DNA of 64,000 nucleotides from an uncultured Bacilli bacterium (GCA_934129945.1 CAKOXC010000004.1:2579-66578); one strand, 5' to 3'; positions 4,752-34,690 are shown, counted from the stretch's first letter. The notes: a model not told the origin generated them from the sequence alone. Translations and numbers: made by a program.

Positions 4752-5504
4752 ATGCGAAAAAATGCAAAGTATATCTTAGTATCTTTGCTGTCATTTTGTT
4801 TTGCAGTAAATGTTAATGCTGCAGAATGTAGTTATGAAAAACAGGTTGAACTTAATAATATTGCATCTACTGTAAAAGCAACTTATGAGGCGGTTGATAT
4901 TGATACAGGAAAAACAGTTAGTTATGTCGATGAAGATGGAATTATTGATACTGATAGACAGGTTCCAGTTAAAGAAAAAGGTTTTAATGTTAAGATATTA
5001 AATCTTACTGAAAATCTATCAATTAAAGTAACTAATGAAACAGAAGGAACAACAAATTATTACTATTATTCAGATTCTGATAACGGTACTATTACTTTAA
5101 GTTCTAAAGTTGCAGATAGAATTTATACATATACAATTACTGTATATGGCACAAAAGATTCATGTGAAGGAATAGAACTACGAAGTTTAAATCTTATAAC
5201 ACCAAAATATAATACATATTCTGATTATTCTTTTTGTAAAGAATATCCAAATTTTGATTATTGTCAAGAATATGTAGTTGATGATAGTTTTAATTTAGAA
5301 GACTTCATTAATAAATCAGCAGCTTATAAAGAAACACAAGATTCTAAAAATAGTAAAGATAATCAAAAAGATAAAGATAATAATAAATCAAATTTTTTTA
5401 AAGAGAATAAAAAATTATTAATTGTATGTGGATCAATCATATTAATAGTGGGGGTTACTACTACTGTGATTATTATCATAAGAAAAAGGAGTAGATTAAT
5501 ATGA
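4752..5504 (+). CDS. Secreted surface protein with C-terminal TM anchor and basic tail; first gene of the pilus/T4SS-like cluster
   Basis: Signal peptide ...VNVNA/AECSY; C-terminal LLIVCGSIILIVGVTTTVIIIIRKRSRLI; the N-terminal ECSY module is shared with the 19346 ORF. Confidence 0.5.
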   Translation: MRKNAKYILVSLLSFCFAVNVNAAECSYEKQVELNNIASTVKATYEAVDIDTGKTVSYVDEDGIIDTDRQVPVKEKGFNVKILNLTENLSIKVTNETEGTTNYYYYSDSDNGTITLSSKVADRIYTYTITVYGTKDSCEGIELRSLNLITPKYNTYSDYSFCKEYPNFDYCQEYVVDDSFNLEDFINKSAAYKETQDSKNSKDNQKDKDNNKSNFFKENKKLLIVCGSIILIVGVTTTVIIIIRKRSRLI

Positions 5505-8332
5505 AAAATATTTTTAAATATATAGGAGTTATGGGTATAGTTGGATTTGTGTCATTATCTAATATAAATGCTTCAACTGTAAGTGTTGAACCAAAGCCTG
5601 GACATGACACAAAGTTTGGATATAAAACTCAAACTCAAACTTTACATACTGAAAATTGTACATATAATATATATTGTCTTGATAAAGGATTACCAAATCA
5701 AAGATCATTTGATGGTTGTAGTATATCAGATGTAACTACTACTGCATTTGGACAAGTAACAGGTGATCATGATTCTAAAGAATACCAGTATAGAGTCATA
5801 GCTAATAACTCTGGTTTAGTAAGAGTTAATTATGCTGATAAAGCTGTGTCAGTATTAAGCCCAGCAGCGCATGGATATGGCAATTTGACTAATAAGACTG
5901 TAAAAAAAAGCGAAATGAAAGAGGCAAATGGAAGCGTATCATATACAACATCTAGTGCTAATGGTTATGGTACTGTAAACGCAACTATAAATCTTGGAAA
6001 AGCTGGTTATGGAGATAAATTTTATATTTCTAGAGGATCAGGAGTTTTAAATGCTATTGATAATGGAAATGGTAGTTATTCTTTAACTATTACTCAAATT
6101 CCAATTGCTGAATGTCAAGGTGCAGAGATTGTTGTAAAAGTAAGAGGAATTTCTTCAAGTTCTTCTAAAGACAGTTCATCAAGTAGTATTTCAATTACAC
6201 CAGGAACAGTTTACTATGTTGACTGTAATGATAAAGATAGACAAAGCTATATACTAGAAATACCTAGTTCTAATCCTAACAGTAGTGGAACTGCTTCAAC
6301 AGTTACATGTGATATAAATGATATTACAAAAAGCTCAACAGGTGGTTTGTCATTCACTTTTACAGTTCCTGATGATGATTGCAACTGTAAAGGTACAACT
6401 ACAATGACAGGAGAATGTGATTCAAACGGTGAAGTTCGAGATTTAGAAGATGAAAACAATTTAAAATCTTGTATTAAACAAGGAGGATTTGCTAGCTATT
6501 GTAATACAAATTTGCAAAAGAAGACTGATGATAATTCTAATAAAAAAGGTAACGTTTTAAGTGAAACAAAGCCTGGGAGTTCTGTAACTTTAACAGATAA
6601 TAATTATTGTAAAGTATATTGTTTAGAAAAGATAGATTTTAATTTACCTGGTACAATAAATACAGATAATGGAAGTTATTTCAAATTGAAAAAAGATTGG
6701 AATAAAGCTAATGATAGTGGAACGAATATGAGTATAAAAGGTACAAGAACTTGTTATACTTCTGAGATTAAAAAGAAGGAATTCATTGAAAAAACTAAGT
6801 CTTTACAAATAAGTATTCGTGATAGTTGGAATGAATATCAAAAAAATAAGAAAAAACAAGAGATAGTTGATAATGCAGGTAAGTATAAAAAAAGTGGTAC
6901 AAAGGATTGTACTTATCCTACTACAGAAGTGCAATATGTTAAAGATGCAAAGGGAAATCTCGTAAAGAATGCTGATGGAACTTATAAAACGACAACTGTA
7001 AATACGACAGGAACAAAACCAAATCCATATACATATTATGAAGCAACTAATGTTAGTTATCCATACGAAAAGGGTACATCAGATGGGGATGGAACATGGA
7101 ATTCTAAATTAGGTACAGATACAGTTAGCTTGACTTGGGGAAATAATCCAACATGTAATGCTGATGGAACTATAACAGAAGATACAGCAAAACCTGAAAT
7201 TACATTAACTACAGAATATGCTAGTCTTTTAAATGATTTAGCTAGTGAAATTCAAAAATATAAATCATGTACTGAATGGAATAATAATTATTGTTTTGAT
7301 CCTGATATAAGTTTTAGTTATGACGAAGTTTATAATAATTTAGTATCTGGTAAAATTGATAAAATAGTTTCAGAAGTTTCAAATCAGACAATTCATTATA
7401 CTAGTGTTAACAATGATTATAAAGATGGAGATAAAACTGACGGTAAAAAAACAGTTCAAAAATATATTTATGTAAATGACACTACTAGTCGTACTCAAAC
7501 TTCTGATATTGATTTAAATACTATTTATATGAAGCAAGAAGTTGTTAAAAAAGCAACTTATAAAGATGCTACAAAGGAAATATATACTTATCATCCATTT
7601 GGAACAATTGTTATTGATAAAAATACAGTAGAGAAAAAAGAAAACTTAAGAAGTTTAGGATATGCTTTCCCAATTGCTTTACAACATGATCCAGATACTG
7701 GAATTTATAATTACTATTTAGCAATTTCTAATATCGGTGTTGGTGGTGATGACGCTGGTGAGTGTAGATATACTAATAAAATAATTGGTGATAGTTGTTC
7801 AATATTTAATACAAAAACTGAAGCAGAGACAGGTAAAGAGTATGTATGCCAATATAAAACAAAGAAATGTCCTGAATGCGAAGTTGAATGTGTTTGCCCA
7901 GATGGTTCTACAAACTGTTATGTTGAAAATAAAGTTTGTAAATTTAAAGAATGTGAAGATTGTAAAGTTGAATGTATAGGTACATGTGTTTGGAATGATG
8001 GAGACACAACAATTTCATATAAAACTATATCTTTAGATGATGTTTATCAAGACGACACACAAATTGGTGGAAACTGGACAGAAGAAGATGTTAAGGCTAT
8101 CCAAGATAAAGGCCAAACAATTTATGAAAATAAACCTGTATTTAAAATTGAATTAACACCTTCACTTATGAATAAAATAAGACAATATAACGAAGATAAT
8201 AAAGAATATAGTAATGATACATTAAGTTGTAGCAATAAGAATTCAAGTGGTGAATATTATTGTACAAGTAGTTTCTTGAAAGATTTTTTAAGTAAGCAAC
8301 ATGCAAATTATACAGATTTTGATAGAAAATAA
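5501..8332 (+). CDS. Large (943 aa) secreted Cys-rich protein, putative pilus-associated adhesin/tip protein
   Basis: Signal peptide; many Cys including CPECEVECVCPDGSTNCYVENKVCKFKECEDCKVEC near the C-terminus; no sortase motif; 4-nt overlap with the upstream gene. Confidence 0.5.
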   Translation: MKNIFKYIGVMGIVGFVSLSNINASTVSVEPKPGHDTKFGYKTQTQTLHTENCTYNIYCLDKGLPNQRSFDGCSISDVTTTAFGQVTGDHDSKEYQYRVIANNSGLVRVNYADKAVSVLSPAAHGYGNLTNKTVKKSEMKEANGSVSYTTSSANGYGTVNATINLGKAGYGDKFYISRGSGVLNAIDNGNGSYSLTITQIPIAECQGAEIVVKVRGISSSSSKDSSSSSISITPGTVYYVDCNDKDRQSYILEIPSSNPNSSGTASTVTCDINDITKSSTGGLSFTFTVPDDDCNCKGTTTMTGECDSNGEVRDLEDENNLKSCIKQGGFASYCNTNLQKKTDDNSNKKGNVLSETKPGSSVTLTDNNYCKVYCLEKIDFNLPGTINTDNGSYFKLKKDWNKANDSGTNMSIKGTRTCYTSEIKKKEFIEKTKSLQISIRDSWNEYQKNKKKQEIVDNAGKYKKSGTKDCTYPTTEVQYVKDAKGNLVKNADGTYKTTTVNTTGTKPNPYTYYEATNVSYPYEKGTSDGDGTWNSKLGTDTVSLTWGNNPTCNADGTITEDTAKPEITLTTEYASLLNDLASEIQKYKSCTEWNNNYCFDPDISFSYDEVYNNLVSGKIDKIVSEVSNQTIHYTSVNNDYKDGDKTDGKKTVQKYIYVNDTTSRTQTSDIDLNTIYMKQEVVKKATYKDATKEIYTYHPFGTIVIDKNTVEKKENLRSLGYAFPIALQHDPDTGIYNYYLAISNIGVGGDDAGECRYTNKIIGDSCSIFNTKTEAETGKEYVCQYKTKKCPECEVECVCPDGSTNCYVENKVCKFKECEDCKVECIGTCVWNDGDTTISYKTISLDDVYQDDTQIGGNWTEEDVKAIQDKGQTIYENKPVFKIELTPSLMNKIRQYNEDNKEYSNDTLSCSNKNSSGEYYCTSSFLKDFLSKQHANYTDFDRK

Positions 8333-8352
8333 CGGAAAGGATTGAATAATAA

Positions 8353-8766
8353 ATGAAAGAAGTTTATTGGGGATATTGGTTAATAGTTTTAGGTGTATTT
8401 ATAACTGTGGTTATGATGATGATAACTAATGTTACAACTTCTAGTACTCAAGATTATTATTTAATCAAAGAAGTTACGGAAGCTTCAATGTTTGATGCTG
8501 TAGATTTAGCTACTTATAGAGAAAATCAAACCTTAAAAATTAATCAAGAAAAATTTGTTGAAAGTTTTATTAGAAGATTTTCTGAAAATGTAAGTTTATC
8601 AACAACATATAATATTGAATTCTACGCAATTCAAGAGCAGCCACCAAAAGTTAGTGTTAAAGTATCGAGTAAATCAAGTGTATTTACAATATCTGGAGAT
8701 AGTAAAAGTTTTGATTTAGTTGATAAAGTTGATGGTATTCTTGAATTACCTAATAATAATAAATAA
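8353..8766 (+). CDS. Bitopic membrane protein (N-terminal TM, extracytoplasmic domain), unknown; minor pilin or assembly factor candidate
   Basis: GGA RBS; YWGYWLIVLGVFITVVMMMI TM helix then soluble domain. Confidence 0.4.
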   Translation: MKEVYWGYWLIVLGVFITVVMMMITNVTTSSTQDYYLIKEVTEASMFDAVDLATYRENQTLKINQEKFVESFIRRFSENVSLSTTYNIEFYAIQEQPPKVSVKVSSKSSVFTISGDSKSFDLVDKVDGILELPNNNK

Positions 8767-8789
8767 AAAGGAATAAAAAGGAGGAAATA

Positions 8790-9647
8790 ATGGCAAATTT
8801 ATTAACAACAATTAAAAGATTTTTAGGTAATAAGAATACAGTAACAATTTTAGGAGTTATAGCCGGTGTATTAGTTATATACATTGGCTATAATTGGCGT
8901 GTAAAGCAAGCTATTAAACCTGTTACTGTACCTTATGCTAAAGTAGAAATATCTTCAAGAACTCAAATTACAGAAGATATGATTGGTTATATGGAGGTAT
9001 CAAGTAGTTTAGTTAACAATAGTCCTAACTTAATACAAAATGCTAGTCAAATAATCAATAATTATGCTGCTTATGGAGTAACTATCCCTGCAAATAGTTT
9101 ATTCTATACATCAGCTATAATGACTGAATCAGAAATGCCTGATTCTGCATTTGCAAATATTCCGGATGGATATACAATTTATTCATTATCTGTAGATTTA
9201 CATGATACATATGGAAACTCAATATACCCTGGTAATTATATTGATTTATATTTAAAAGCTACTGATGATAGTGGAAAAATTATATTTGGTAAATTAATTG
9301 AAAGTATTGAAGTATTAGCTGTAAAAGATAGTCAAGGAAATCATGTTTTTGAAACTACTGTAGAATCAAGAACACCTGCAGAATTATTATTTGCAGTACC
9401 TGATGATATGTACTTATTATTAATGAAAGCTGGATATGTTTCTGGTGGAGTGGATATACTTCCAGTACCAAGAAATGCATCATATTCTGCTAATCCTGGT
9501 GAAACTTCAGTTGCATCAGATTATATTAAGAACTTTATCTTATCTAAAACAGCAACAATCCCTGATAATGTTGTAACTAATACTACAAATAACAGTAATA
9601 CAAATAATGATAATACTACAAACAACAATAATAATAATAACGATTAA
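8790..9647 (+). CDS. cpaB: Flp pilus assembly protein CpaB (SAF + RcpC domains) with Asn-rich low-complexity C-terminal tail
   Basis: N-terminal TM; VTVPYAKVEISSRTQITEDMI (SAF-like); YSLSVDL...YPGNYIDLYL...IEVLAVKD...TPAELLFAVPDDMYLLLMKAGYVSGGVDILPVPR matches the CpaB core. Confidence 0.75.
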   Translation: MANLLTTIKRFLGNKNTVTILGVIAGVLVIYIGYNWRVKQAIKPVTVPYAKVEISSRTQITEDMIGYMEVSSSLVNNSPNLIQNASQIINNYAAYGVTIPANSLFYTSAIMTESEMPDSAFANIPDGYTIYSLSVDLHDTYGNSIYPGNYIDLYLKATDDSGKIIFGKLIESIEVLAVKDSQGNHVFETTVESRTPAELLFAVPDDMYLLLMKAGYVSGGVDILPVPRNASYSANPGETSVASDYIKNFILSKTATIPDNVVTNTTNNSNTNNDNTTNNNNNNND

Positions 9648-9680: not shown

Positions 9681-10973
9681 ATGAATGATGCTATATTCTC
9701 TCAGTTAGATTTTGGACCATTAAATGAATTTTTAATGGATGATAATGTTACCGATATTTCTTATAGTAACAATGGTCAAGTATTTTTAAAAACCTTAACT
9801 AAAGGTGTTTATAAAGTTGAAAGACCAGAGATAAATAATGCATTAATGGAAAAATTAGCATTTCAATGTTCTAATGTTATGGGTAAAACATTTAATATGG
9901 CTCATCCTTTTCTAGATGCAGAAAGTACAGAGTTACGTTTAAATTTCGTTCATGAATCAATTGCAACTAATGGAATAGCAGTATTAATTCGTAAAACACC
10001 TGCTAAAATTCGTTTAAATAGAGATAAATTATTAAGAGAAGATTATGTAACAGAGGATTTACTTAACTTCTTAATTGATTGTGTTCATGCTCGTTGTAAT
10101 ATTATAGTAAGTGGTGAAACTGGTTCAGGTAAAACAGAACTAGTCAAATATCTTGCAAGTAATACAAGAGAAGATGAAAAAATTATTTCAATAGAAGATA
10201 CTTTAGAGTTACACTTAGATAGAATTTATCCACATCGTGATATTGTTGCAATGAAAACTAATAATATTGCATCTTATACTGATGTACTTGTTACATGTAT
10301 GAGACAAAACCCAATATGGATATTACTTGCCGAGGTTCGTAGTGCTGAAGCAGTACTTGCAATCCGTAACTCAATATCTTCTGGACACCATATCATGTCA
10401 ACAATTCATGCTGACAAAGCTGCAAGTATTCCAATGCGTATGTATTCATTACTTGAATCAAGTCAAGATACAGATCAATTCTTATCTTCAATTCATAGAT
10501 ATGTTCAATTAGGAATATATGTTAAAGGTTACATGAGTAAAAAATATAATAGATTTCAACGTGAAATACTTGAAGTTTGTGAATTTTATGTTGATGATGA
10601 TAATAAACCATGTACAAATGAAATTTATAAAAAAAGTTTGGATGGAACAATGAGTTTCAATAATCCAACACAACATTTAAAAGATTATTGTAGTATTCAA
10701 GGAATTGATTTAGGTGATGATCCATTCCACTTGGTAACAGAAAAAAAATCAACAAATAATTTAAAAAATCCATTAGAAGAACAAACACCAACCACTTCTA
10801 ATGAAATAAAAAATGTTGATAAAGCTCCTGTTAATCAACAGGTGGAAGTAAAACCTATTAATTCTACTGTGGAAAACCCTACTGTTATCAACAGTGTTCC
10901 TACAAATCAAAATAATAATCAAATAAACAATATATCTAATATAAGTAATATAGATGTATTAGATATTATATAG
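9681..10973 (+). CDS. VirB11/CpaF(TadA)-family secretion ATPase with long low-complexity C-terminal tail
   Basis: Walker A VSGETGSGKTE; Asp box IISIEDTLELHL; Walker B/His box WILLAEVR...HHIMSTIHAD; about 100 aa N/Q/T-rich tail. Confidence 0.85.
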   Translation: MNDAIFSQLDFGPLNEFLMDDNVTDISYSNNGQVFLKTLTKGVYKVERPEINNALMEKLAFQCSNVMGKTFNMAHPFLDAESTELRLNFVHESIATNGIAVLIRKTPAKIRLNRDKLLREDYVTEDLLNFLIDCVHARCNIIVSGETGSGKTELVKYLASNTREDEKIISIEDTLELHLDRIYPHRDIVAMKTNNIASYTDVLVTCMRQNPIWILLAEVRSAEAVLAIRNSISSGHHIMSTIHADKAASIPMRMYSLLESSQDTDQFLSSIHRYVQLGIYVKGYMSKKYNRFQREILEVCEFYVDDDNKPCTNEIYKKSLDGTMSFNNPTQHLKDYCSIQGIDLGDDPFHLVTEKKSTNNLKNPLEEQTPTTSNEIKNVDKAPVNQQVEVKPINSTVENPTVINSVPTNQNNNQINNISNISNIDVLDII

Positions 10974-10995: not shown

Positions 10996-11889
10996 ATGGT
11001 ACTTATATTATTATTAGCAATTGCCATATATGTAGTTTCTTATAGATTAAATAAAGGTGAAAATGTTTATAAATTCTTTATTACCTCTGTACAAAATGCA
11101 TATGAAAAATACGCTCCATATTCTTTTAAAGAAGTTAGACAAAAAACTAAAGAATTAGGAAGAGAATATACAGCAAAACAATATGCAATACAAATAAGTA
11201 TAATTGGTGGGTTTGCTGGAGTTATATCATATTTGTATTTTTACAACGTTTTAATAACTATAATTTATGTAATAATAGCTATAGCTTTTATTCCTTATTT
11301 AGCATATTTAAGATGTCAAAAAGTATATAGTGAATATATATTTGAACAAATTCAAATATATACTACTAACGTTATTATGGAATTTAATACTACTCAATCA
11401 TTTGTTAAATCTTTAGAAGGTGTTAGAGATTCTGGTATCCTACTGGATCCAGTTTTACAAGATGTTAAAACTATGATTGATATGTCTTATCAAAATGGTA
11501 CAATTGATGAATCTATTGAATATTTTAATGCTAAATATCCATTCTATATGGTAAAAAATATGAATCAATTGTTTTTACAAATTACTAAAGAAGGTGCTAA
11601 AGATTCTGGTGAAGCATTAGAAAATATGGCAATGGATATAGATGCTTTAGTAGAAGGTGTTTATAGAGACCAAATGGATAGAGTAGAATTCCATAGAAAA
11701 TTCTTAACATTTGGTGTTGCATTATTCTTTCTAGTACTTGCAATGCAATTTTTATTAGGAACAGATTCATATATTGAACTATTAGATATGTTTTATGTTC
11801 AAATAATATTACATTTGATAATAATAATTAATGCTTATTTCTTATTATCTGGTGAAAAATTCTACAATGAAGATGTGGGGGTTGAGTAA
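10996..11889 (+). CDS. GspF/TadB-TadC-like inner-membrane platform protein (paralog 1)
   Basis: Topology of N-terminal TM, cytoplasmic helical domain and C-terminal TM pair; position immediately after the secretion ATPase as in tad loci. Confidence 0.55.
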   Translation: MVLILLLAIAIYVVSYRLNKGENVYKFFITSVQNAYEKYAPYSFKEVRQKTKELGREYTAKQYAIQISIIGGFAGVISYLYFYNVLITIIYVIIAIAFIPYLAYLRCQKVYSEYIFEQIQIYTTNVIMEFNTTQSFVKSLEGVRDSGILLDPVLQDVKTMIDMSYQNGTIDESIEYFNAKYPFYMVKNMNQLFLQITKEGAKDSGEALENMAMDIDALVEGVYRDQMDRVEFHRKFLTFGVALFFLVLAMQFLLGTDSYIELLDMFYVQIILHLIIIINAYFLLSGEKFYNEDVGVE

Positions 11890-11891
11890 TT

Positions 11892-12680
11892 ATGCATATA
11901 GAAATAGTTATTTTAGCAGCAATTATATTATTTGTTTTAAACTATACTGGAAGAATTAACGCTAATAGATTTATTACTGACAATACTGAATATTTTAGAA
12001 AATTAAAAGAAGACGATTGGGATTTTTTAGTAAAAGCTAGATATGGCGATGGAGCAAACCCAGACATATTATTTACTAAGAGAGTTCAAAATGCTGGAAT
12101 AGTATTAGTATTATGCTTATTTATCTTTATTTCTAACTTCAGTTATGCAACATTCTTAGTTTCATTAATTGCAGCCTATTTAATGTTTAAGTCTGGTTAT
12201 AGTAGTATGAAAAAGTATTATAAAAAACATTTGAGTGAAATAGATTCAATGTTACCACATTATTTAAAAAGTTTGGAAATATTAATTCAACACTATACAG
12301 TACCTGTTGCTATTGGTAAATCAATATCTGATGCTCCTGAAATATTTAGAGAAGGACTTCAAGAAATGATTAATGAAATTAATGCTGGTAATGATAAAAT
12401 AGATCCATACATGAATTTTGCTAAAGAATATCCAGTAAGAGATTCAATGAGAATGATGAGACTTTTATATCGTTTAAGTTTAGGTAAACAGGAACATAAA
12501 CAAGAACAATTATTAACATTCTCAAAAACAATATCTAATCTACAACAAAAAGCACGTGAAACACGTTATAAAAATAGATTAGATAAGATGGAAAGCAAAA
12601 CAATGTCAATGTTAATTACTACAGGTTTAGGAGTTATGATACTTTTAATATTTGCAGTATTACAAATGATGAATTTATAA
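11892..12680 (+). CDS. GspF/TadB-TadC-like inner-membrane platform protein (paralog 2)
   Basis: Same topology; T2SSF-like segment ...VPVAIGKSISDAPEIFREGLQEMINEINAGN...; 3-nt gap after the upstream paralog. Confidence 0.55.
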   Translation: MHIEIVILAAIILFVLNYTGRINANRFITDNTEYFRKLKEDDWDFLVKARYGDGANPDILFTKRVQNAGIVLVLCLFIFISNFSYATFLVSLIAAYLMFKSGYSSMKKYYKKHLSEIDSMLPHYLKSLEILIQHYTVPVAIGKSISDAPEIFREGLQEMINEINAGNDKIDPYMNFAKEYPVRDSMRMMRLLYRLSLGKQEHKQEQLLTFSKTISNLQQKARETRYKNRLDKMESKTMSMLITTGLGVMILLIFAVLQMMNL

Positions 12681-14328: not shown

Positions 14329-14556
14329 ATGAAAGAAGCAACAGGAGAATTAAATATGACAGTTGTAACAGTAGTTGCAATAGCAGCAATAGCAGCATTT
14401 TTCTATACATTCGTTTGGCCTGGAATTAAAGATAGTATTAAAAAAAATACTTGCGAAGCACAATGTTCAACAGGTGATAGTAGTTGTGTAAATACTTGTA
14501 TGAACAAAGATAATACCAATACTAATACTAATACTAATACTAATACTCAAGGTTAG
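14329..14556 (+). CDS. Small pilin-like protein (class-III-signal-like N-terminus, Cys-rich C-terminal domain, TN repeat tail)
   Basis: MKEATGELNMTVVTVVAIAAIAAFFYTF: short polar leader, Gly, then hydrophobic helix; 6 Cys; (TN)x6. Confidence 0.55.
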   Translation: MKEATGELNMTVVTVVAIAAIAAFFYTFVWPGIKDSIKKNTCEAQCSTGDSSCVNTCMNKDNTNTNTNTNTNTQG

Positions 14557-14603: not shown

Positions 14604-14840
14604 ATGAAAGAGGCAACAGGAGAACTTAATATGACATTAGTTATTGTAATAGCAGTAGGAATCCTTGCTGCCTTTTTCTATACTGTTATATGGCCTTTAA
14701 TAGGTGATAATTTTGATAGAAATGCTAATTGTAGTAAAGCTATCTGTAAATGTGAAGGTACTTGTAAACAAGATGGGATTGCACAATGTTATATAAAAGG
14801 TAAAAAAAATAATGTTTTTGAGTGTCCTTGGAAAGGTTAA
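14604..14840 (+). CDS. Small pilin-like protein, paralog of the 14329 ORF
   Basis: Identical N-terminus MKEATGELNMT then hydrophobic helix; 8 Cys. Confidence 0.55.
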   Translation: MKEATGELNMTLVIVIAVGILAAFFYTVIWPLIGDNFDRNANCSKAICKCEGTCKQDGIAQCYIKGKKNNVFECPWKG

Positions 14841-14856: not shown

Positions 14857-15372
14857 ATGAGAGAAGCAATAGGTGGAACTTGGTTATTTAATTTAGTTAT
14901 TTTCTTTGTATTGCTATTTGCTGGTTATATGTGTTTATCTATTAACTATTCAAAAGCATTTGGTGTTAAGGATAAAATAATAAATGAACTCGAAAGAAAT
15001 GGTGGAGTTAAAGTATTTACAAACAGTAATTATACAGATATAGCTTTAACAAATATTTCTAATTATATGAAAAAAGTTGGCTATAGAACCAAAGGAAGTT
15101 GTAAAGGATACAGTTATGGTTGTACTTTGGACGGAAAATGTACTAGTGTTAATTCTAGTAATACTACAAAATATGCTTTTTGTTTATCTGAAGTAAAAGC
15201 AAATGATGCATATTCTTATGCAGTAAATGGGACTCCTGGAGAATTTATTTATGTAAGTTATTATAAGGTAAAAGTTTTTTATCAATTGGATTTACCTATT
15301 ATAAGAACAGCATTTGATTTCAATATAAAAGGAGATACAAAAATACTTTATAAAACAGCAAATAAACATTAA
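14857..15372 (+). CDS. Pilin-like/pseudopilin-like protein (171 aa)
   Basis: MREAIGGTWLFNLVIFFVLLFAGY leader+helix similar to the small pilins; Cys-containing globular domain. Confidence 0.5.
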   Translation: MREAIGGTWLFNLVIFFVLLFAGYMCLSINYSKAFGVKDKIINELERNGGVKVFTNSNYTDIALTNISNYMKKVGYRTKGSCKGYSYGCTLDGKCTSVNSSNTTKYAFCLSEVKANDAYSYAVNGTPGEFIYVSYYKVKVFYQLDLPIIRTAFDFNIKGDTKILYKTANKH

Positions 15373-27369: not shown

Positions 27370-27370
27370 A

Positions 27371-27604
27371 ATGGAAAAAGAATATGATGTGGTTGAATTA
27401 GTAAATGGTGTTAGAGTTGCAGTAGTTGATGCGATAAATTATCATAATAGAATTTTTCTTTTAGTTGGAAAATTAGATAAAGAAGACAATATTTCAGAAG
27501 AATTACAAGTGTTTGAGAAAATTGATGATGAAATTTCAGAAGTAAATGATAATGATTTACTTGAAAAATTAATTCAAACATTTGAAAATAGAATTAATGA
27601 TTAA
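27371..27604 (+). CDS. Small acidic protein, DUF1292-like
   Basis: MEKEYDVVELVNGVRVAVVDAINYHNRIFLLVGKLDKED...ELQVFEKIDDE pattern resembles the DUF1292 family. Confidence 0.35.
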   Translation: MEKEYDVVELVNGVRVAVVDAINYHNRIFLLVGKLDKEDNISEELQVFEKIDDEISEVNDNDLLEKLIQTFENRIND

Positions 27605-27718: not shown

Positions 27719-30154
27719 TTGGTGGTGATTTTTTTGAATAATTCTAATAATGATAATATTTCAAATAATAATCAACAAACTACTAATTTAAATAATAAAA
27801 ATATAAATATGCCAAATAATAAAGTTAATAGAGAAAATCCATCATCTTCACAAGATGTTACACATACACTAGGAAAAGGAGTAGCAACTCATTTTGGTGG
27901 TGGTATTGGTAATAAAATTTATGATGAAGCAAGTAAGACAAAACTTGGTCAGAAAATAGAAAAAAATGCTTCTAAGCAAATTGATAGAAATCCAATTGCA
28001 TCAAAAGTTGCTAATGGATTAAGTAGTGCAGGCGCAACAGATAAAGCAAATAGTGCGATTGATGCTTTAAGTTTTAAGTCAGGTGGAAAATGTTTTAATA
28101 GTAATTTAAATAAAGGTGCAAAAAGTACTAATAAAAAATTAAATAATAATAATTTTTCTGTTAATAGTCCAATTAGAAATAGATCTAGTTTAAATCAACC
28201 AACTCTTTTAAATGATGGACTTGATCAAGCTCCAGATTTTGAAAATATGACTCCTGAAGAAATTGAAGACTATAGATTAAAACAAGAGGAATTGGAGCAA
28301 ATAAACCAAGAAAAAGAAAAAAAAGAAAAAAATGATAAAAGAAAAAAACAGGTAAAATCAATAATTGAATTTTTTGTAAGACATCCTCAATTATTACTTA
28401 TTGTTGGAATAGCATTATTAATAATTTTTGTCCTTATAATTTTAATTTATATGATTTCTTCAGATATGGATTTAGTTGGTAATAGAGGCGTTGGGTATGA
28501 CAACGCAGAACAAGTAAGTGGATATTGTGAAAATATTATTTTAATAAAAGAACATGATGATTTTCCTGGGGCAGCTGTTGCTTCAATAGATGATGTTAAT
28601 TTAGAAGAAACATTTAGATTAAATAATAGAGATGTTAAAAGATATGAATATCAAACTTATTCATTGGAAGAATATGTAAAAGGAGTATTACAAGCAGAAA
28701 CATCAATTATAAAAGAAGAAAAAACATATGAAGTTGCTGCTATTGTAGCAAGAACTTATGCTGTTGAAATAGCTAATAAAAACTGTTATGTTTGGGATAA
28801 TAATAATAAAAGAAGTGAATATAAAAATCCACAAAATTTTAATCATGATAATATAGATAGTGATATTTCAGAAGCAGTTTCTAAAACTACAGGATTAATT
28901 GCATATGATAAAGATCAAATAATAGATATGAGTCAAGATAGTTATTATGATTATTTTTGTTATAATAAAATTACCAATAGTAGTTCGGAAGATCAATCTT
29001 ATTATGAAATGATTCAAGAAAATGAAGAAGAAAATTTATTGATTTCTGTTGATTGGACAAAAGATAATAATAATGTTGCTGATGGTGATGCTAAGAAATG
29101 GAATTTTAGTGGTAAATATAATGGTGGTGGATATAATAATAATTGTCAAAAAAATGGTTTAAGTCTTTATGGTGCAAAATACTTGTTGAATAAAGAGTAT
29201 AATCCTTATGATACGATTAGAGTATTAATGTATTATTATACCTATGATTTAGAATTGAAAAAAGTTGGTTCTTTTATTGCTAGTGATGGATGTTTTTGGT
29301 GGCCAACTGACGGTACAATAATAACTTCAAGGTTTGGATTAAGAGATGCTCCAACAGCTGGTGCTTCAACAAACCATGGTGCAATAGATATTGCTGTTAG
29401 CCAAGGAACTAATGTATATGCAACAGCTAATGGAAAAGTAACCGTTGCAGGAGCTGTATCAGGCTATGGATATGCGGTTTATATTGATCATGGAAATGGA
29501 ATTGTTTCAAGGTATGGACATCTTAGAGCAGATGGTATCAAAGTTTCTGTAGGTCAAAATGTTTCAGCCGGGGATATAATTGCTTTATCAGGTAATACAG
29601 GAATTTCCACAGGACCCCATCTTCATTTTGAAATTAGATTAAATGATGTAAAGGTTGATCCACTAAATTATGTAAGTCCAATCGATCAACGTCCAACTTG
29701 TACAAATTCAGGTGGAACAATAGTTGATACAGGAGAAAATTCTTCTTCAATTTGTATGACTTTAAAAAATAATGGATTTACTTCACCACAAATTGGTGGT
29801 ATTATGGCAAATTTATTTGCAGAATCAGGATTTAATCCTGCATCATTTAACCCTGGTGGTGGTGGACAAGGAGCATATGGTATAGCTCAGTGGCGTGGTA
29901 ATAGACAGGCTGCGTTAAAAAGTTTAGCTAATTATGATACTCTTGAAGTTCAATTATCTTTCTTATTAAGTGAATTAAACTCTTCAGAAGCAGCAGCAAA
30001 AAGTTCCTTATTATCATCAGGTGGTGATGCTAATAGTTTAGCTTATGTTTTCTGTTCAAAATATGAAAGACCTGGCGGAACAATTTGTACAGAAAGACAA
30101 AATTCTGGTAATGGTTTATCTTATTCAAATTATGCTACAAATAATTGTAGTTAG
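27719..30154 (+). CDS. Three-domain secreted peptidoglycan hydrolase (SpoIID/LytB-like + M23 peptidase + phage-tail-lysozyme-like domain); probable start is the TTG at 27734
   Basis: N-terminal TM; YEVAAIVARTYAVE (SpoIID-like); HGAIDIA...GYGYAVYIDHGNGIVSRYGHL...GPHLHFEIR (M23/LytM); GIMANLFAESGFNP...GAYGIAQWRGNRQ (phage tail lysozyme-like). Confidence 0.8.
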   Translation: MVVIFLNNSNNDNISNNNQQTTNLNNKNINMPNNKVNRENPSSSQDVTHTLGKGVATHFGGGIGNKIYDEASKTKLGQKIEKNASKQIDRNPIASKVANGLSSAGATDKANSAIDALSFKSGGKCFNSNLNKGAKSTNKKLNNNNFSVNSPIRNRSSLNQPTLLNDGLDQAPDFENMTPEEIEDYRLKQEELEQINQEKEKKEKNDKRKKQVKSIIEFFVRHPQLLLIVGIALLIIFVLIILIYMISSDMDLVGNRGVGYDNAEQVSGYCENIILIKEHDDFPGAAVASIDDVNLEETFRLNNRDVKRYEYQTYSLEEYVKGVLQAETSIIKEEKTYEVAAIVARTYAVEIANKNCYVWDNNNKRSEYKNPQNFNHDNIDSDISEAVSKTTGLIAYDKDQIIDMSQDSYYDYFCYNKITNSSSEDQSYYEMIQENEEENLLISVDWTKDNNNVADGDAKKWNFSGKYNGGGYNNNCQKNGLSLYGAKYLLNKEYNPYDTIRVLMYYYTYDLELKKVGSFIASDGCFWWPTDGTIITSRFGLRDAPTAGASTNHGAIDIAVSQGTNVYATANGKVTVAGAVSGYGYAVYIDHGNGIVSRYGHLRADGIKVSVGQNVSAGDIIALSGNTGISTGPHLHFEIRLNDVKVDPLNYVSPIDQRPTCTNSGGTIVDTGENSSSICMTLKNNGFTSPQIGGIMANLFAESGFNPASFNPGGGGQGAYGIAQWRGNRQAALKSLANYDTLEVQLSFLLSELNSSEAAAKSSLLSSGGDANSLAYVFCSKYERPGGTICTERQNSGNGLSYSNYATNNCS

Positions 30155-30165: not shown

Positions 30166-31023
30166 ATGACACAAGAAAATAAAATAAAATTAAAAATAAT
30201 ATTAGTTATATTTTTAATATTTTGTGCTTTGTTTATAGTAATATACATTAATAAAGGTAAAACTAATAATAAAGATAGTAACACATTAAAATTATTAGAA
30301 GTAGATAACTATAATATATATTTTTCAGTTCAAAAAAATCTAAATAAATTTATTGAATATTATGTTAAAAATGAAAAAAGTTCAGTGTATAACATGCTAA
30401 ATGAAAAATATAAAAAAGAAAATAATATTGATTTAAATTCAAACATTAAACTACTAAATACATTTTCTGAAAATGCTTATCTTAAAAATTTAAAAGAAAA
30501 GTACTATAAATTAAATGATAACGTAAATTGTTATTATGTTAAAGGTGATTTATATGAAGATTCTTTTGAAGAAGATAAATTTTTAGAAAATAATATTCAT
30601 TTTTTAGTATTAATTGATTATAATAATATAACATTTGAAATTATTCCAGTTGAATCACTTGAAGATTCTATAAAATGGATAAAAAAATTAAATAAAGATT
30701 ATGAAATTACGAAAAATAATTATAATGCTTTAGAAGGGATAAATGTAATTACTAAAGAAAATATCTGTCTAATGTATTTATCAGATTTTGTTACATTAGC
30801 AACAAATAATCCTAAAGAAGCATATAAATTAGTTGAAAATTTTGATACTTATGACAAGTTTTCTAATTTTTTAAAAACATCAGGTCAAACTTTTGTAGTA
30901 AGTTCGTGTGAAGTTTATAAAAGCAACAAGAAAAATATTTATAGTATTGTTGATGGTAATAAAATTCATTATAGATTTACTGAAAATAATATTATGGATT
31001 ACACGGTTACTATGACAAAATAA
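30166..31023 (+). CDS. Bitopic membrane protein, unknown; VirB8/TcpC-like candidate
   Basis: N-terminal TM then about 250 aa soluble domain; placed between the hydrolase and the coupling protein. Confidence 0.35.
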   Translation: MTQENKIKLKIILVIFLIFCALFIVIYINKGKTNNKDSNTLKLLEVDNYNIYFSVQKNLNKFIEYYVKNEKSSVYNMLNEKYKKENNIDLNSNIKLLNTFSENAYLKNLKEKYYKLNDNVNCYYVKGDLYEDSFEEDKFLENNIHFLVLIDYNNITFEIIPVESLEDSIKWIKKLNKDYEITKNNYNALEGINVITKENICLMYLSDFVTLATNNPKEAYKLVENFDTYDKFSNFLKTSGQTFVVSSCEVYKSNKKNIYSIVDGNKIHYRFTENNIMDYTVTMTK

Positions 31024-31080: not shown

Positions 31081-33258
31081 ATGAAATTTAGAGTTACTAA
31101 AAAAGATTTAACAATATTTATAGCATTTTGTATTTTATTGTTATATTTATGTGCAATTGCTATATTAAATTTTGAATCATTTGCAAACTCAGGATCTTTT
31201 TATGGGTTGTTACCATTTAAAGCATTTACATTACATTATTTGCCATTAACCTTAGGTATGTTCTTTATATCTTTAATTGTAATTTTTTCTAGTGTTTCTT
31301 CTTATATATTTAATAAAGAAAAAGGCAAAGGTATAGGAGTTAAAATAGGCGAAAAAGAAAATAAGGGATATTCAAGATGGGCTAAAGAAAAAGAAATAGC
31401 TGAAGATAAAGGCGTTGAATGTGTTGATCCAGCCGCTGATACAATTCCAGCCGCTGGAGTACCACTTTTTTATAAAAAAGATAAAGTATACGTAGATAAC
31501 AGTCAGTATCATAACTTAATACTTGGAACTACAGGAAGCGGTAAATCAGAATCTATTGTTAAACCAATGGTAAAATTGTTAGCTAAAAATGGTCAAAGTA
31601 TGATTATTGCTGACCCTAAAGGTGAACTTTATTCTGATACATCTGAAGAATTAAAAAAACGTGGGTACAACATTATTGTTTTAAATTTTAGGGATCCTCA
31701 AAAAGGAAATTCTTGGAATCCATTAACATTACCTTATAGATTTTATAAAGCAGGAAATATTGATAAAGCTACTGAACTTTTAGACGATGTTGCCCTAAAT
31801 ATTTTACAAGATCCTAATAATAAAAATGATCCATTTTGGGAGAAAAGTGCAGCAGACTATTTTTCTGGACTTGCTATGGGATTATTTCAAGATGCTAAAG
31901 AAGAAGAAGTTAATTTAAATTCAATTAATTTAATGAGTACTGTAGGTGAAGAAAGATTTGGAGCAAGTCATTATATTAATGAATATTTTAAAATGAAAGG
32001 TGAATCTTCTTCAGCTTATATATTAGCTTCTGGAACTATTAATTCTCCAAGTGATACTAAGGGTGGAATTTTATCAACTTTCCGCCAAAAAATAAGAACA
32101 TTTTCATCACGTGAATTTTTATCAGAAATGCTATCTTACAGTAATTTTGATATGTCAAAAATAGGGCAAGAAAAAACAGCTGTTTATATGATAATTCATG
32201 ATGAAAAAACTACTTATCATAGTTTACTTACTATATTTATTAAACAATGTTATGAAACTTTAGTAGATGTTGCTAATGAAAATGGTGGTAAATTACCTAT
32301 TAGAACAAACTTTATTCTTGATGAATTTGCTAATATGCCACCACTTAAAGATGTTGGATCTATGGTATCTGCTGCTCGTAGTAGAGATATAAGATTAACA
32401 TTTATTATTCAAAACTTTGCTCAACTTGCTGATGTTTATGGAAAAGAAGTTGCAGAAGTTATAAAAGGAAATTGTAATAATTTAATATATTTATTATCTA
32501 CAGAAATGGCAGCCTTAGAAGAAATTTCTAAAATTTGTGGTGAAGTAAAATCTAAAGAAAAGGATAAAACAGCATCAACTCCATTAATTACTGTAACTGA
32601 TTTACAAAAATTCAAAATGGGCGAAGCACTTCTTTTAAGAAGTAGAAAATATCCATTTAGAACAAAATTAAAAGCTGATTTTGAAATAAATTGGGGAATG
32701 GAGAAAAAAGAAGGAGTTTTACCAGAACGTGAAAAACGTGAGGTAGAATTATTTGATTTAAAAAAATTCGTTTCAGAAGAAAAAAGAAAAAGAATGATGG
32801 AAAATAATAATGGTGATATGTCATTAAATCAAATGAATAATCCATTTGGAGGTATGATGGGAGCTAATCCATTTAGTGGATTAAATCAGACTCCAAGTCC
32901 GATGCCAAACCCTTTTAAACAAAATCCAATGGCTGATATTGATATTGATAAAGTAATGGCAGATATTGATAAAAAGTTAAAAGAACTTGAAGAAGAAGAC
33001 GAAAAAGAAAAAAAACAACAAGCAAAAGTTCAAGAAAATAAAGGTGATAATGTTAATCTTGATAAAGAAATAAAAAAAGAAACACCTGTATTTGAAATTC
33101 CTAAGAGTGATGAAAAAGATAATTCTAAAGTTTCAGATATTTCAAATAATGTTCAAAAGACTGATAAGCCAAAAATAAATGTTGATGTTGATAGTGTTAT
33201 TGTTAATGATAATATTATTACTGATGATGAATTTTTTGATGATTTCTTTCAAGATTAA
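31081..33258 (+). CDS. virD4: VirD4/TraG-family type IV coupling protein (T4CP)
   Basis: Two N-terminal TMs; Walker A LILGTTGSGKSE; Walker B NFILDEFANMPP; acidic/Pro-rich C-terminal tail. Confidence 0.85.
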   Translation: MKFRVTKKDLTIFIAFCILLLYLCAIAILNFESFANSGSFYGLLPFKAFTLHYLPLTLGMFFISLIVIFSSVSSYIFNKEKGKGIGVKIGEKENKGYSRWAKEKEIAEDKGVECVDPAADTIPAAGVPLFYKKDKVYVDNSQYHNLILGTTGSGKSESIVKPMVKLLAKNGQSMIIADPKGELYSDTSEELKKRGYNIIVLNFRDPQKGNSWNPLTLPYRFYKAGNIDKATELLDDVALNILQDPNNKNDPFWEKSAADYFSGLAMGLFQDAKEEEVNLNSINLMSTVGEERFGASHYINEYFKMKGESSSAYILASGTINSPSDTKGGILSTFRQKIRTFSSREFLSEMLSYSNFDMSKIGQEKTAVYMIIHDEKTTYHSLLTIFIKQCYETLVDVANENGGKLPIRTNFILDEFANMPPLKDVGSMVSAARSRDIRLTFIIQNFAQLADVYGKEVAEVIKGNCNNLIYLLSTEMAALEEISKICGEVKSKEKDKTASTPLITVTDLQKFKMGEALLLRSRKYPFRTKLKADFEINWGMEKKEGVLPEREKREVELFDLKKFVSEEKRKRMMENNNGDMSLNQMNNPFGGMMGANPFSGLNQTPSPMPNPFKQNPMADIDIDKVMADIDKKLKELEEEDEKEKKQQAKVQENKGDNVNLDKEIKKETPVFEIPKSDEKDNSKVSDISNNVQKTDKPKINVDVDSVIVNDNIITDDEFFDDFFQD

Positions 33259-33298
33259 AAAAAATTAAAATTTTTTGAAATTTAATAGATTTTGAAAA

Positions 33299-33326
33299 TT
33301 GGTAAAAATAACTTTACCAATTTTTG
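33299..33326 (+). terminator. Rho-independent terminator (first of two) closing the cluster
   Basis: TTGGTAAA-loop-TTTACCAA then T5. Confidence 0.6.
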
Positions 33327-33335
33327 TATTTTTGT

Positions 33336-33364
33336 ATACAGATTTTAAAAATCTGTATTTTTTA
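33336..33364 (+). terminator. Rho-independent terminator (second of two)
   Basis: TACAGATTT-loop-AAATCTGTA then T6. Confidence 0.6.
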
Positions 33365-33440
33365 ATGGCTTCAAATAAGCAAATTTGCAATTTGCATTAT
33401 TTTAAAACACCTGTTATTATGCAAAAAAAGGGGGAAATAT

Positions 33441-34253
33441 ATGAAAAAATTTTACAGTTGTCGTTATGATAGAACATTTAAAGAAGTATTTTTAAATCCC
33501 AAGAATGAAGATTTACTAGAATCCTTACTAGAAGATATATTAAAAGTGAAAATAGAAATAAAAAAAATACTTCCAACAGAGTTAATAGTAGGTAATAATA
33601 TAATAAAATCAAAAAGAGTAGACGCCTTAATACTTGCTACAAATAAAAAGATAGAAATAGAGATAAATGCAAGTATTAATGAATATGTGTATATAAGAAA
33701 TACTGCATATATTTGTAATATATATTCAACTAATGCCTTAGTTGGTGATACATATAATCAAAATATTGATATAATTCAAATAAATCTAACATGGGGACTA
33801 GATTATGAAGAAAGCAAAAGAGAATTTAGAATAATTGATAAAAATGGAAATGTGTATGTAAAAAATTTACTAATAATAGAAATAAATATGGAATATTATA
33901 AAAAAATTTGGTATAGTAAGGATGAAAAAAAGATAAAAGAAAATGAACTTTTAGTAATGTTAGATTTAAATGAAGGGGAGTTAAAGAAAATGCCAAAGAG
34001 TGATAAGATATCAGAAAAATATGTAGAGAGTGTAACAAAAGTAAATAACGATCCATTTTTCCAAGAGTATATGAGTCAAGAAGAAGATCAAAGAAAGATG
34101 CAAAACTCATTAATAAGAGAAGCAGAAGATAAAGGAAAAGAACAAGAAAAAATTAACATAGCAAAGAGTTTAATACAAAGTGGTATGAGTTTAGAAGATG
34201 TTTCTAAACACACAAAAATAGATATTAGTAAATTAAAGAAAATGAACTTTTAG
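33441..34253 (+). mobile_element. Rpn-family recombination-promoting nuclease / PD-(D/E)XK putative transposase gene
   Basis: N-terminus ..DRTFKEVFLNPKNEDLLESLLEDILKVKI.. and helix-rich C-terminal module typical of YhgA/Rpn (transposase_31) proteins. Confidence 0.6.
33938..34128 (+). repeat. Direct repeat copy 1 (about 190 bp, near-identical to 34238-34428)
   Basis: GAAAATGAACTTTTAGTAATGTTAGATTTAAATGAAGGGGAGTTAAAGAAAATGCCAAA... recurs with only a few mismatches. Confidence 0.8.
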
Positions 34254-34428
34254 TAATGTTAGATTTAAATGAAGGGGAGTTAAAGAAAATGCCAAAAAGT
34301 GATAAAATATCAGAAAAATATATAGAGAGTGTAACAATAGTAAATAACGATCCATTTTTTCAAGAATATATGAGTCAAGAGGAAGATCAAAGAAAGATGC
34401 AAAATTCATTAATAAGAGAAGCAGAAGG
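34238..34428 (+). repeat. Direct repeat copy 2
   Basis: See copy 1. Confidence 0.8.
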
Positions 34429-34588
34429 ATCAGGATATGAAAAAGGCATTAAGCTTGGTGAAGAAAAAGGAAAAATTAAAATGGTAAAAAATATGTTAAA
34501 TGAAAAAATTGATATTAATACCATTTCTAAAATAGCAAATTTATCAATTGAAAAGATAAATAAGATTAAGAAGAATTTAGTATCATAA
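34256..34588 (+). pseudogene. Partial tandem duplicate of the Rpn transposase C-terminal module
   Basis: Encodes LDLNEGELKKMPKSDKISEKY... identical to residues about 170-230 of the 33441 ORF, then a diverged C-terminus; lacks the nuclease N-domain. Confidence 0.5.
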
Positions 34589-34690
34589 AAATAAAAAATG
34601 AAAATTAATATTAGTAAGGTTTAACTTACTTTTTTTATAATATTGAATAAAAAATAAAAATAATTCCATACTATAACTAGGTGAAAATCA

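Follow-up and report, generated by a model that had tools for sequence, protein, structure and literature searches.

The 64,000-nucleotide stretch of DNA analysed here (the window; GCA_934129945.1 CAKOXC010000004.1:2579-66578, from an uncultured Bacilli bacterium) carries a gene cluster of 28.5 kb at positions 4752-33258, with all of its genes on the plus strand. The cluster joins a Tad-like pilus locus (module 1) to a type IV secretion system (T4SS; module 2), in which VirB4 and VirD4 domains mark mating-pair-formation genes and a coupling protein. Because no relaxase, integrase or attachment (att) site was found, and because the genes are under purifying selection, share the native codon usage, keep a conserved position and extend across the lineage, we are highly confident that the cluster is a domesticated, non-mobile system. 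The G+C content of the window is ~25%, and its genes are those of a Bacillota genome with the sporulation genes cotZ and spoVAC/D/E in addition to scpAB, perR, rbr and tsaEBD. Both flanks are of housekeeping character, with ftsW, cotZ and phosphotransferase system (PTS) genes on the left, where tyrS lies just beyond the window edge as seen in the related contigs L093/L094 (L numbers denote such contigs and loci throughout), and spoVAC/D/E, scpAB, perR, rbr and tsaEBD on the right.

Open reading frames (ORFs) of at least 80 amino acids (aa) were scanned, with Pfam for the cluster ORFs and both flanks and with NCBIfam for most cluster ORFs; the segment at 34.7-44.6 kb was covered mostly through the precomputed Pfam annotation of a 99%-identical contig, L002, which ends ~1 kb before 44.6 kb. 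The features of the cluster and its borders are as follows.

3456-4157, minus strand: CPBP/Rce1-like intramembrane protease (Pfam Rce1-like, 1.7e-14; NCBIfam MroQ-like, 9.4e-12, below cut-off)
4161-4613, minus strand: membrane-anchored thioredoxin-fold protein with a CSHC motif (Pfam Thioredoxin, 2.2e-13; TraF, 5.4e-05)
4693-4721, plus strand: promoter-like site TTGAAA-17-TG-TACAAT preceding the first cluster gene (10 of 12 consensus positions; a consensus match only)
4752-8332, plus strand: two secreted Cys-rich proteins of 250 aa (with a C-terminal anchor) and 943 aa; signal peptides and Cys clusters visible in the sequence
8353-9647, plus strand: DUF5411 protein (PF17424, 8.1e-55) and RcpC/CpaB-like protein (RcpC, 26.8 bits against a cut-off of 28.8)
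9681-10973, plus strand: TadA/CpaF-type pilus ATPase (T2SSE, 2.3e-26, 92.8 bits)
10996-12680, plus strand: two polytopic membrane proteins located where TadB and TadC would be expected (position and topology only)
12752-14239, plus strand: polytopic membrane protein of 495 aa, accessory (no Pfam or NCBIfam family match)
14329-14556 and 14604-14840, plus strand: two Flp-like small pilins of 75 and 78 aa with Cys-rich tails and the leader MKEATGELNMT
14857-15917, plus strand: two pseudopilin-like proteins of 171 and 176 aa with the conserved leader MREAIGGTW
15941-16945, plus strand: TadZ/ParA-like protein (weak CbiA/ParA match; positional)
17006-17389, 17456-18085, 19346-20491 and 20501-20842, plus strand: four VirB2-like T4SS pilin paralogues
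18103-19269, plus strand: conserved Cys-rich membrane protein of 388 aa within the pilin array
20870-23080, plus strand: VirB6-like polytopic channel protein (NCBIfam Mbov_0396 ICE transmembrane protein, 1.1e-07, below cut-off; ICE, integrative and conjugative element)
23099-23410, plus strand: VirB3-like small membrane protein (position and size)
23394-23960, plus strand: TrsD-like protein, the N-terminal domain of VirB4 as a separate ORF (PF26593 TraC-like, precomputed)
23960-25744, plus strand: VirB4 ATPase of 594 aa (AAA_10, P-loop_TraG and DUF87 matches)
25822-27604, plus strand: variable accessory genes for an acidic coiled-coil protein (515 aa) and a protein of 77 aa (no family match)
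27719-30154, plus strand: wall hydrolase with an N-terminal membrane anchor and SpoIID, Peptidase_M23 and Phage_lysozyme2 domains, a VirB1/PrgK analogue
30166-31023, plus strand: membrane-anchored protein of 285 aa in the VirB8/TcpC position (position only)
31081-33258, plus strand: VirD4-type coupling protein (T4SS-DNA_transf, 1.3e-49; NCBIfam CD1115-family VirD4, 295 bits against a cut-off of 250)
33295-33372, plus strand: two hairpin-plus-U-run terminators closing the cluster (z = -4.4 against shuffles)
33441-34253, plus strand: PDDEXK_2/Rpn gene (1.7e-08), not part of the system
34256-34588, plus strand: duplicated C-terminal fragment of the Rpn/PDDEXK_2 gene

This gene content, VirD4 included, agrees with a preliminary description of the same DNA, as do the double terminator placed there at 33.3 kb, which is real, and the Rpn/PD-(D/E)XK gene past it as the only recombination-related gene. 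The terminators had been missed by a consensus scan because their stems are AT-rich. An Rfam scan of the window gave no regulatory RNA match.

Module 1 encodes a type IV filament that is Tad-like but divergent. TadA homologues, one of which was named CpaF by JGI, are 75-100% identical across species, the TadZ-like protein is retained at 63-89% aa identity and the two proteins in the TadB and TadC positions at 62-98%. These last two are not mutual paralogues, as hhalign detected no relationship between them; an AlphaFold single-sequence model of the TadB-like protein was poor (pLDDT 58), and Foldseek gave no fold match for it. The two Flp-like pilins were absent from our list of ORFs of at least 80 aa and fill what had appeared as a gap past the 495-aa membrane protein. 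Their leader, MKEATGELNMT (14329-14360 and 14604-14635), is invariant in ~30 orthologues that differ in their mature parts, and the pseudopilin leader MREAIGGTW (14857-14885 and 15387-15415) does not vary among species either. The Flp processing motif G/XXXXEY was found in neither leader, the Flp-like one reading MKEATG-ELNMTVV with no EY. Since the Flp-like leader is invariant, it is probably a different but real signal, and the two leader types would imply a dedicated processing or recognition step. Neither the 250-aa nor the 943-aa secreted protein has a Pfam or NCBIfam match. Both are among the most divergent proteins between conspecific alleles (61% and 53% aa identity, respectively), and secreted Cys-rich proteins also precede the Tad genes in L052, L091 and L092; we infer that they are adhesin or specificity factors of the pilus module.

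The 495-aa protein is missing between TadC and the pilins in L016, L028, L045, L090 and L093. It was considered as a prepilin peptidase and set aside for want of a family match, and as a YfhO relative, but a BLAST comparison with the YfhO protein that holds the corresponding place in L092 showed no significant similarity. In this distant relative, TadC and the pilins are separated by a YfhO-family GT-C protein (L092:13040-15580) instead of the 495-aa one, and Alg14/Alg13-like glycosyltransferase genes (L092:19950-20905) lie downstream of the homologue of the 388-aa protein. These L092 genes give hints that the pilins may be glycosylated. The C-terminal end of the first Flp-like pilin in the window is an (NT)6 repeat.

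Module 2 is a conjugation-type T4SS of the monoderm kind whose DNA-processing half was lost or never existed. Its centre is uniform among relatives, as VirB3, the TrsD-like protein and VirB4 are encoded side by side in 78-79 of 80 loci (VirB3-like protein in 78, at 52-86% aa identity; TrsD-like ORF in 79) and the VirB6-like protein stands upstream of VirB3 in 46 of 53. The TrsD-like ORF matches residues 92-276 of the 894-residue NCBIfam model Mbov_0397 (VirB4_plasma) at 5.4e-14. Orthologues of the window pilins matched PF18895 in 13 of 19 cases and CagC in two of 19, and the C-terminus of the 381-aa pilin resembles the other paralogues by eye. In L093:17900-19159 and L011:3632-4894, a protein with a GDSL/SGNH hydrolase domain ends in a VirB2-like pilin domain, which is a Pfam match in L093 and was identified by BLAST similarity to a window pilin in L011. 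As many as 114 ORFs of at least 300 aa in the 80 loci match the window pilin paralogues, and variable head domains on the pilins thus appear to be common. The 515-aa and 77-aa accessory genes have orthologues in the closest relatives only, with 45% aa identity between conspecific alleles. The hydrolase of L010 is annotated with SpoIID and NlpC/P60, and no M23 or lysozyme match was recorded there. Profiles built from orthologues of the 285-aa and 388-aa proteins showed no remote homology to PDB entries.

The coupling protein combines a hypervariable linker with a conserved acidic/aromatic C-terminal tail (...ITDDEFFDDFFQD; region 33100-33258). This tail, KPKINVDxDSVIVNDNxITDDEFFDDFF, is nearly invariant among VirD4 homologues (P0001-P0120) that are only ~60% identical overall. 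In the F plasmid, an acidic/aromatic tail of TraD binds TraM, and by analogy the VirD4 tail is probably a docking motif for the substrate or its adaptor.

The absence of a relaxase, an integrase and a prepilin peptidase in or beside the cluster, as stated in the preliminary description, was borne out by the Pfam and NCBIfam scans and the L002 annotation. No relaxase or MOB family was found in the scanned ORFs of the 64 kb, nor any tyrosine, serine or DDE recombinase, so that PDDEXK_2/Rpn is the sole recombination-type gene in the scanned window. Direct repeats bracketing the block were not found, including attL/attR repeats around 4.7-33.4 kb, a check proposed along with the first description, and the window contains no tRNA gene as a target. 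Neither relaxase nor recombinase occurs among the 30 most recurrent non-cluster neighbour families of 80 related loci, all of which are housekeeping or of unknown function (RmuC, rhodanese, MurC, UppP, Dus, GltX, SpoIIP and others). A cryptic relaxase among the unannotated cluster proteins was also considered and rejected: the 515-aa, 77-aa and 285-aa candidates are poorly conserved or membrane-anchored, and the core shared across 80 species holds no unassigned soluble protein. Peptidase_A24 was found neither in the window scans nor within 10 kb of TadA in L091-L094, and the prepilin peptidase may be encoded elsewhere in the genome. The tad locus of Bifidobacterium breve is likewise not known to have a prepilin peptidase in its cluster, as is normal for Tad loci of monoderms. 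The missing peptidase is uninformative, since the published monoderm Tad locus of TANB77 gut Clostridia also has none in its cluster (PMC11680825).

Composition and selection both speak for long residence. The G+C content at third codon positions (GC3) is 0.113 in the cluster against 0.117 in the flanks, and relative synonymous codon usage (RSCU) correlates between cluster and flanks at r = 0.994, against 0.985 between one flank half and the other; the comparison of codon usage with the flanks, a check proposed in the preliminary description, thus shows no difference, and a recent acquisition is rejected. All cluster genes are intact. Ratios of nonsynonymous to synonymous substitution (dN/dS) are 0.04-0.05 for VirB4, 0.04-0.08 for the TrsD-like protein, 0.07 for TadZ and 0.10-0.20 for VirD4, and the Walker motifs are intact in 120 of 120 VirB4 homologues (Walker A and DEAH box) and in 117 of 120 VirD4 homologues. 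Adjacent housekeeping genes are less conserved than VirB4: in L012, spoVAD is 75% identical where VirB4 is 95%, and in L013, ftsW is 65% identical where VirB4 is 92%.

A scan of one genome per species detected VirB4 relatives in 409 GTDB species. The best 80 of these 409, at 78-96% identity, are labelled almost entirely as uncultured Bacilli, Tenericutes or 'Mycoplasma sp. CAG:776', with a few other labels such as Muribaculaceae, and one VirB4 homologue is named Ca. Ventrenecus avicola. Across species, VirB4 homologues are 78-97% identical and exactly 594 aa long in nearly all cases. VirD4 has thousands of homologues, many of them 60-65% identical, on long contigs of metagenome-assembled genomes from the gut. 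Outside this group similarity drops sharply. An exhaustive search of VirB4 against 1.8 billion cluster representatives returned matches at 66%, 45%, 42% and then at most 33%, the few that carry names among the representatives looked up at ~30% identity being from Thomasclavelia, Solobacterium, a Mycoplasmatota plasmid and Culicoidibacterales, and the nearest plasmid VirB4 is <30% identical. A phage or viral origin was rejected, as relatives turned up on only 4 of 2.9 million viral contigs.

The genomic position is equally stable. VirD4 directly precedes spoVAC/D/E in L010, L011, L012, L099 and L100, as it does in the window save for the Rpn insertion, so that the VirD4-spoVA junction is conserved in six lineages. 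Elsewhere the modules are separable: in the species of L091/L013, the Tad module is set apart from the T4SS module by tyrS and ftsW-cotZ; in L007 and L008, a lone VirD4 gene sits between uppS and a rhodanese gene; and no VirD4 occurs within at least 8 kb downstream in 18 of 41 loci. Among 30 species loci with both flanks available, Tad, T4SS and VirD4 stand together in 14, VirD4 only is adjacent in six and neither is adjacent in 10. The commonest non-cluster neighbours of the T4SS core are collagen-repeat/BclA-like exosporium proteins, in 22 of 80 loci (e.g. L077:13820-15307).

At the left border, the thioredoxin and CPBP protease genes named in the preliminary description were both confirmed by Pfam. 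Because the pair stays by the Tad module in L091, a different species in which ftsW-cotZ have moved, it is perhaps more than a border and may serve the many Cys-rich exported proteins. The thioredoxin-fold protein has sub-threshold NCBIfam matches to PedC/BrcD, TrbB (the F-type pilin-assembly disulfide isomerase) and TraF-like families, and a second copy in L091 follows a pilin gene; it is possibly a disulfide isomerase acting on the numerous Cys-rich proteins of the pilus and the T4SS. The CPBP/Rce1-like protease gene, which sits in the low-divergence flank in the conspecific comparison, adjoins the Tad module in L091 and not in L092, and is a possible accessory gene of the system. On the right, the Rpn/PDDEXK_2 gene contains an internal duplication of 214 nt (93% identical). 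The full gene is not at the VirD4-spoVA junction in L011, L012 and L100, and L010 keeps the C-terminal fragment alone; the Rpn gene is a late, strain-level insertion outside the system. In L001, an identical cluster with Rpn is followed by rpsP, RNase J and ftsAZ in place of spoVA, and further contigs terminate within Rpn. These contigs reflect either a rearrangement or chimeric assembly where an Rpn copy is repeated.

Comparison within the species revealed how the cluster varies. Two independent assemblies, one a contig from another sample (L094 and L010) and the other L093, match the window at 96-100% nucleotide identity in their flanks, where synonymous divergence (dS) is 0.03-0.17 to the left of the cluster and 0.06-0.23 to its right. 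From the 250-aa protein through VirD4, dS rises to 0.26-1.25 and nucleotide identity ranges from 62 to 96%, identity falling at ~4.8 kb and recovering at ~33.2 kb, which are the cluster borders. The cytoplasmic motors are close between alleles (VirB4 96%, TadA 96%, TadB 98% and VirD4 88% aa identity) and the exposed parts divergent (943-aa protein 53%, Flp1 57%, pilins 39-44%, VirB6 56%, hydrolase 63%). The 285-aa protein has no detectable counterpart in the other allele, and the hydrolase there has a different set of annotated catalytic domains. Gene content also differs, with the 495-aa protein present or absent and a GDSL hydrolase-pilin fusion. In contigs from truly different species (L011, L012, L099 and L100), divergence is uniform across cluster and flank. 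Since the breakpoints coincide with the cluster borders, the whole block forms a deeply divergent allelic cassette, which is replaced by homologous recombination at a fixed locus and not by site-specific mobility; since dS is raised even in strongly conserved genes, the alleles are old or imported. The pattern is comparable, by analogy, to that seen at capsule or pilin loci. A proposed comparison of related strains for presence or absence of the block as a unit accordingly gave a different outcome, in that the sister lineage holds the whole block as a divergent allele at the fixed site. The near-identical right flank has hypervariable places of its own, a 321-aa protein at 36488-37453 (70% identity and dS 0.75 between conspecific lineages) and the segment 41620-42000 (~80% nucleotide identity).

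The closest likeness among known systems is to the T4SSs of Patescibacteria, such as that of Southlakia epibionticum ML1, which are chromosomal and lineage-wide, with no relaxase found. They contain TrsD, VirB3/PrgI, VirB6, several PF18895 pilins and a peptidase and lysozyme after virB4, and their type IV coupling protein (T4CP) gene lies mostly far from virB4 (PMC12102498). The window repeats this arrangement with a split TrsD-like ORF and a VirB4 of ~600 aa, VirB3/PrgI-like and VirB6-like proteins, an array of sequence-divergent VirB2-like (PF18895) pilins beside the T4SS core, a peptidase and lysozyme downstream of virB4, a T4CP that is often elsewhere and an accompanying type IV filament system. 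Three points set the two apart: the host here is a peptidoglycan-walled Bacillota with spoVA and cotZ and not an ultrasmall member of the candidate phyla radiation; the pilus partner is Tad-like and physically joined to the T4SS locus; and VirD4, strongly conserved, is frequently encoded within the cluster. In Southlakia the T4SS is essential for epibiotic growth (PMC12857230), and the hyper-conservation of VirB4 is only suggestive as to a need for growth on a host cell. According to a 2025 review, VirB2-type pilins among monoderms occur in Patescibacteria only, and the functions of Gram-positive T4SSs are nearly all in DNA transfer (PMC12857230); the VirB2-like pilins thus separate the present cluster from other Gram-positive T4SSs.

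With monoderm systems of the mating-pair-formation class MPF-FATA (pCF10, pGO1 and C. difficile CTn elements with a CD1115-type VirD4), the cluster shares VirB4, VirD4 and a multi-domain wall hydrolase, and it has candidate counterparts of VirB6, with a match below cut-off, and of VirB3 and VirB8, assigned by position. Unlike these, it has no relaxase, oriT, integrase or cargo, it is inherited vertically, and its VirB4 is <30% identical to any plasmid copy. A further likeness is to the ICEs of Mycoplasma, in that the best NCBIfam matches of VirB6, the N-terminal part of VirB4 and one pilin are Mbov_0396, Mbov_0397 and Mbov_0395, all far below the cut-offs, and the hosts of these elements are phylogenetic neighbours of the present hosts. 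In contrast to Mycoplasma ICEs, which are mobile, bounded by inverted repeats and equipped with a DDE transposase, the cluster has none of these features. The pilus module resembles monoderm Tad loci, such as that of TANB77 (PMC11680825) or of B. breve, in having TadA and several small proteins akin to pilins, together with a CpaB-like protein just under cut-off, a TadZ-like protein and two putative platform proteins. It departs from monoderm Tad loci in its leader, MKEATG/ELNMT instead of Flp G/XXXXEY, in TadB/C proteins that are unrecognisable by sequence, in its fusion to a T4SS and in the two large Cys-rich secreted proteins that precede it. A literature search of incomplete coverage found no description of such a system in RF39/RFN20-type gut Bacilli, nor one reached via DUF5411 or PF18895. 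We classify the cluster as an exapted relaxase-less T4SS with an architecture otherwise reported only for Patescibacteria, here in a walled Bacillota, with a fused Tad-like pilus and in the form of an allelic cassette.

The best explanation of the whole, which we hold to be probable, is a vertically inherited chromosomal two-module machine of a large uncultured gut Bacilli clade that serves attachment and the translocation of something other than relaxase-piloted cargo. A contact-dependent mechanism of translocation is proposed with middling confidence. The Tad filament and the variable secreted proteins would attach the cell to a partner, either another microbe or a host surface, and the wall hydrolase would open the cell wall. 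The VirB3/B4/B6 core, decorated with VirB2-like pilins, some of which would bear extracellular heads (including the SGNH hydrolase in relatives), could then form the conduit. VirB4 and VirD4 would power the passage of a substrate other than relaxase-piloted DNA, with the invariant VirD4 tail docking the substrate or an adaptor. The relaxase-less T4SSs of Patescibacteria are thought to work likewise. The surface parts are under diversifying pressure, and the whole block therefore circulates within the species in divergent allelic forms, which homologous recombination in the conserved flanks exchanges.

Several observations weigh against this explanation. No substrate, effector or partner organism was identified, and the VirD4 family is annotated for conjugal DNA transfer, which makes DNA a possible substrate. 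A relaxase could lie elsewhere in these genomes, outside the scanned loci. Some assignments are positional: the proteins in the TadB/TadC positions have no Pfam or PDB profile match, the VirB3-like protein has no Pfam or NCBIfam match, and the 285-aa protein has no Pfam, NCBIfam or PDB profile match and a model with pLDDT of 46. Three of the four window pilins match PF18895 at 2.4e-05 to 4.1e-04, all below the gathering score. As to a Patescibacteria link, the names of the cluster members of 20 near VirB4 representatives were only of Bacillota/Mycoplasmatota, where there were names at all, and the closest outgroups that bear a name are ordinary Bacilli. Finally, the contrast between allele and flank rests on metagenome contigs from two independent assemblies, and chimeric assembly is possible. 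Protein, small molecule and DNA are all candidate substrates; a non-conjugative role of one kind or another, an option already raised in the preliminary description, is what the evidence supports.

The strongest competitor, though an unlikely one, is a relaxase-independent exchange of chromosomal DNA, in which a fixed 'mating' machine moves large segments without oriT or relaxase and the cassette is a compatibility or specificity locus, with chromosomal transfer in Mycoplasma and DNA import by archaeal Ced/Ted as precedents. VirD4 is under purifying selection and scores above the cut-off of a conjugal-transfer T4CP family, and the locus itself has been replaced over at least 28.5 kb by homologous recombination, so that large-fragment exchange does occur in the species. 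Mycoplasma ICE proteins are the best NCBIfam matches of VirB6 and the TrsD-like ORF, the Mycoplasmatales are close relatives of these orders (PMC10868615), and Mycoplasma ICE T4SSs support chromosomal transfer that is independent of oriT (PMC6030558, PMC12857230). However, the Mycoplasma process needs a complete ICE, and the NCBIfam matches are far below the cut-offs. Nothing direct ties the present machine to DNA movement, and transformation could suffice; ComG-type pilin genes are present in these genomes.

Considerably less probable is a competence apparatus of the ComB type, taking up DNA captured by the Tad pilus. In its favour, no relaxase was found in the scans, and a reference-list entry in PMC11680825 links Tad pili to DNA uptake. 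The conserved VirD4 with its invariant tail and the separate set of ComG-type pilins in relatives are at odds with this explanation. ComB systems are not known to have a VirD4. In Saccharibacteria, moreover, the T4SS is essential irrespective of ComEC (PMC12857230).

An ICE that is decayed or defective, or a conjugative apparatus that relies on a relaxase and integrase encoded elsewhere for its mobilisation in trans, both raised in the preliminary description, has a conjugation-type set of mating-pair-formation and T4CP genes, the Rpn/PDDEXK_2 gene at the right border and the difference of the block between conspecific strains in its favour, but is very improbable: decay is contradicted by intact genes under strong purifying selection (dN/dS 0.04-0.20) with Walker motifs kept, codon usage equal to that of the flanks, no att repeats and no tRNA, and by occurrence in hundreds of species; mobilisation in trans fits poorly with a junction conserved in six lineages and, elsewhere, with modules interrupted by or dispersed among housekeeping genes; plasmid VirB4s are <30% identical and viral contigs with a relative exceedingly few; Rpn is missing at the junction in relatives; and strains differ by replacement of one allele with another at a fixed site and not by having or lacking the block.

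Beyond the cluster, the right part of the window contains some further features. A ToxN/AbiQ-type toxin gene at 44797-45254 is split into ORFs of 32 and 108 aa and is therefore a pseudogene, and no ToxI-like tandem repeats were found upstream of it. A RhuM/Fic-domain gene and a Bro-N-domain gene at 48398-49879 form a small phage- or defence-like island, beside which the segment at 45-48 kb, with 19-21% G+C, encodes a polytopic membrane protein of 686 aa and a GT2 gene.

For annotation pipelines the cluster is a warning that VirB4 together with VirD4 is not always an ICE. It also suggests that the function of monoderm T4SSs and the occurrence of VirB2-type pilins reach beyond the limits drawn in the 2025 review (PMC12857230), and the allelic-cassette pattern points to surface components under diversifying selection. 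Testable handles are offered by the VirD4 tail, as bait for a substrate or adaptor, by the invariant pilin leaders, with which an unknown peptidase could be sought, and by the pilin-fused hydrolase. We put forward only tentatively, and with some doubt, the larger claim that this is the first pilus-bearing, relaxase-less T4SS outside Patescibacteria, joined to a Tad locus in hundreds of walled gut Bacilli with sporulation genes, where it would lie at the heart of how they live, as a conduit for feeding on or attachment to partner cells or as a chromosomal, relaxase-independent machine for DNA exchange ('sex'), and its locus would be a mating-type-like specificity cassette maintained within a species in deeply divergent alleles. 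A large, prevalent and uncultured clade of gut Bacilli keeps a relaxase-less T4SS and its pilins under a constraint above that of neighbouring housekeeping genes, and if it mediates attachment, feeding or DNA exchange with partner cells, the system could explain the lifestyle of these bacteria and their resistance to cultivation.

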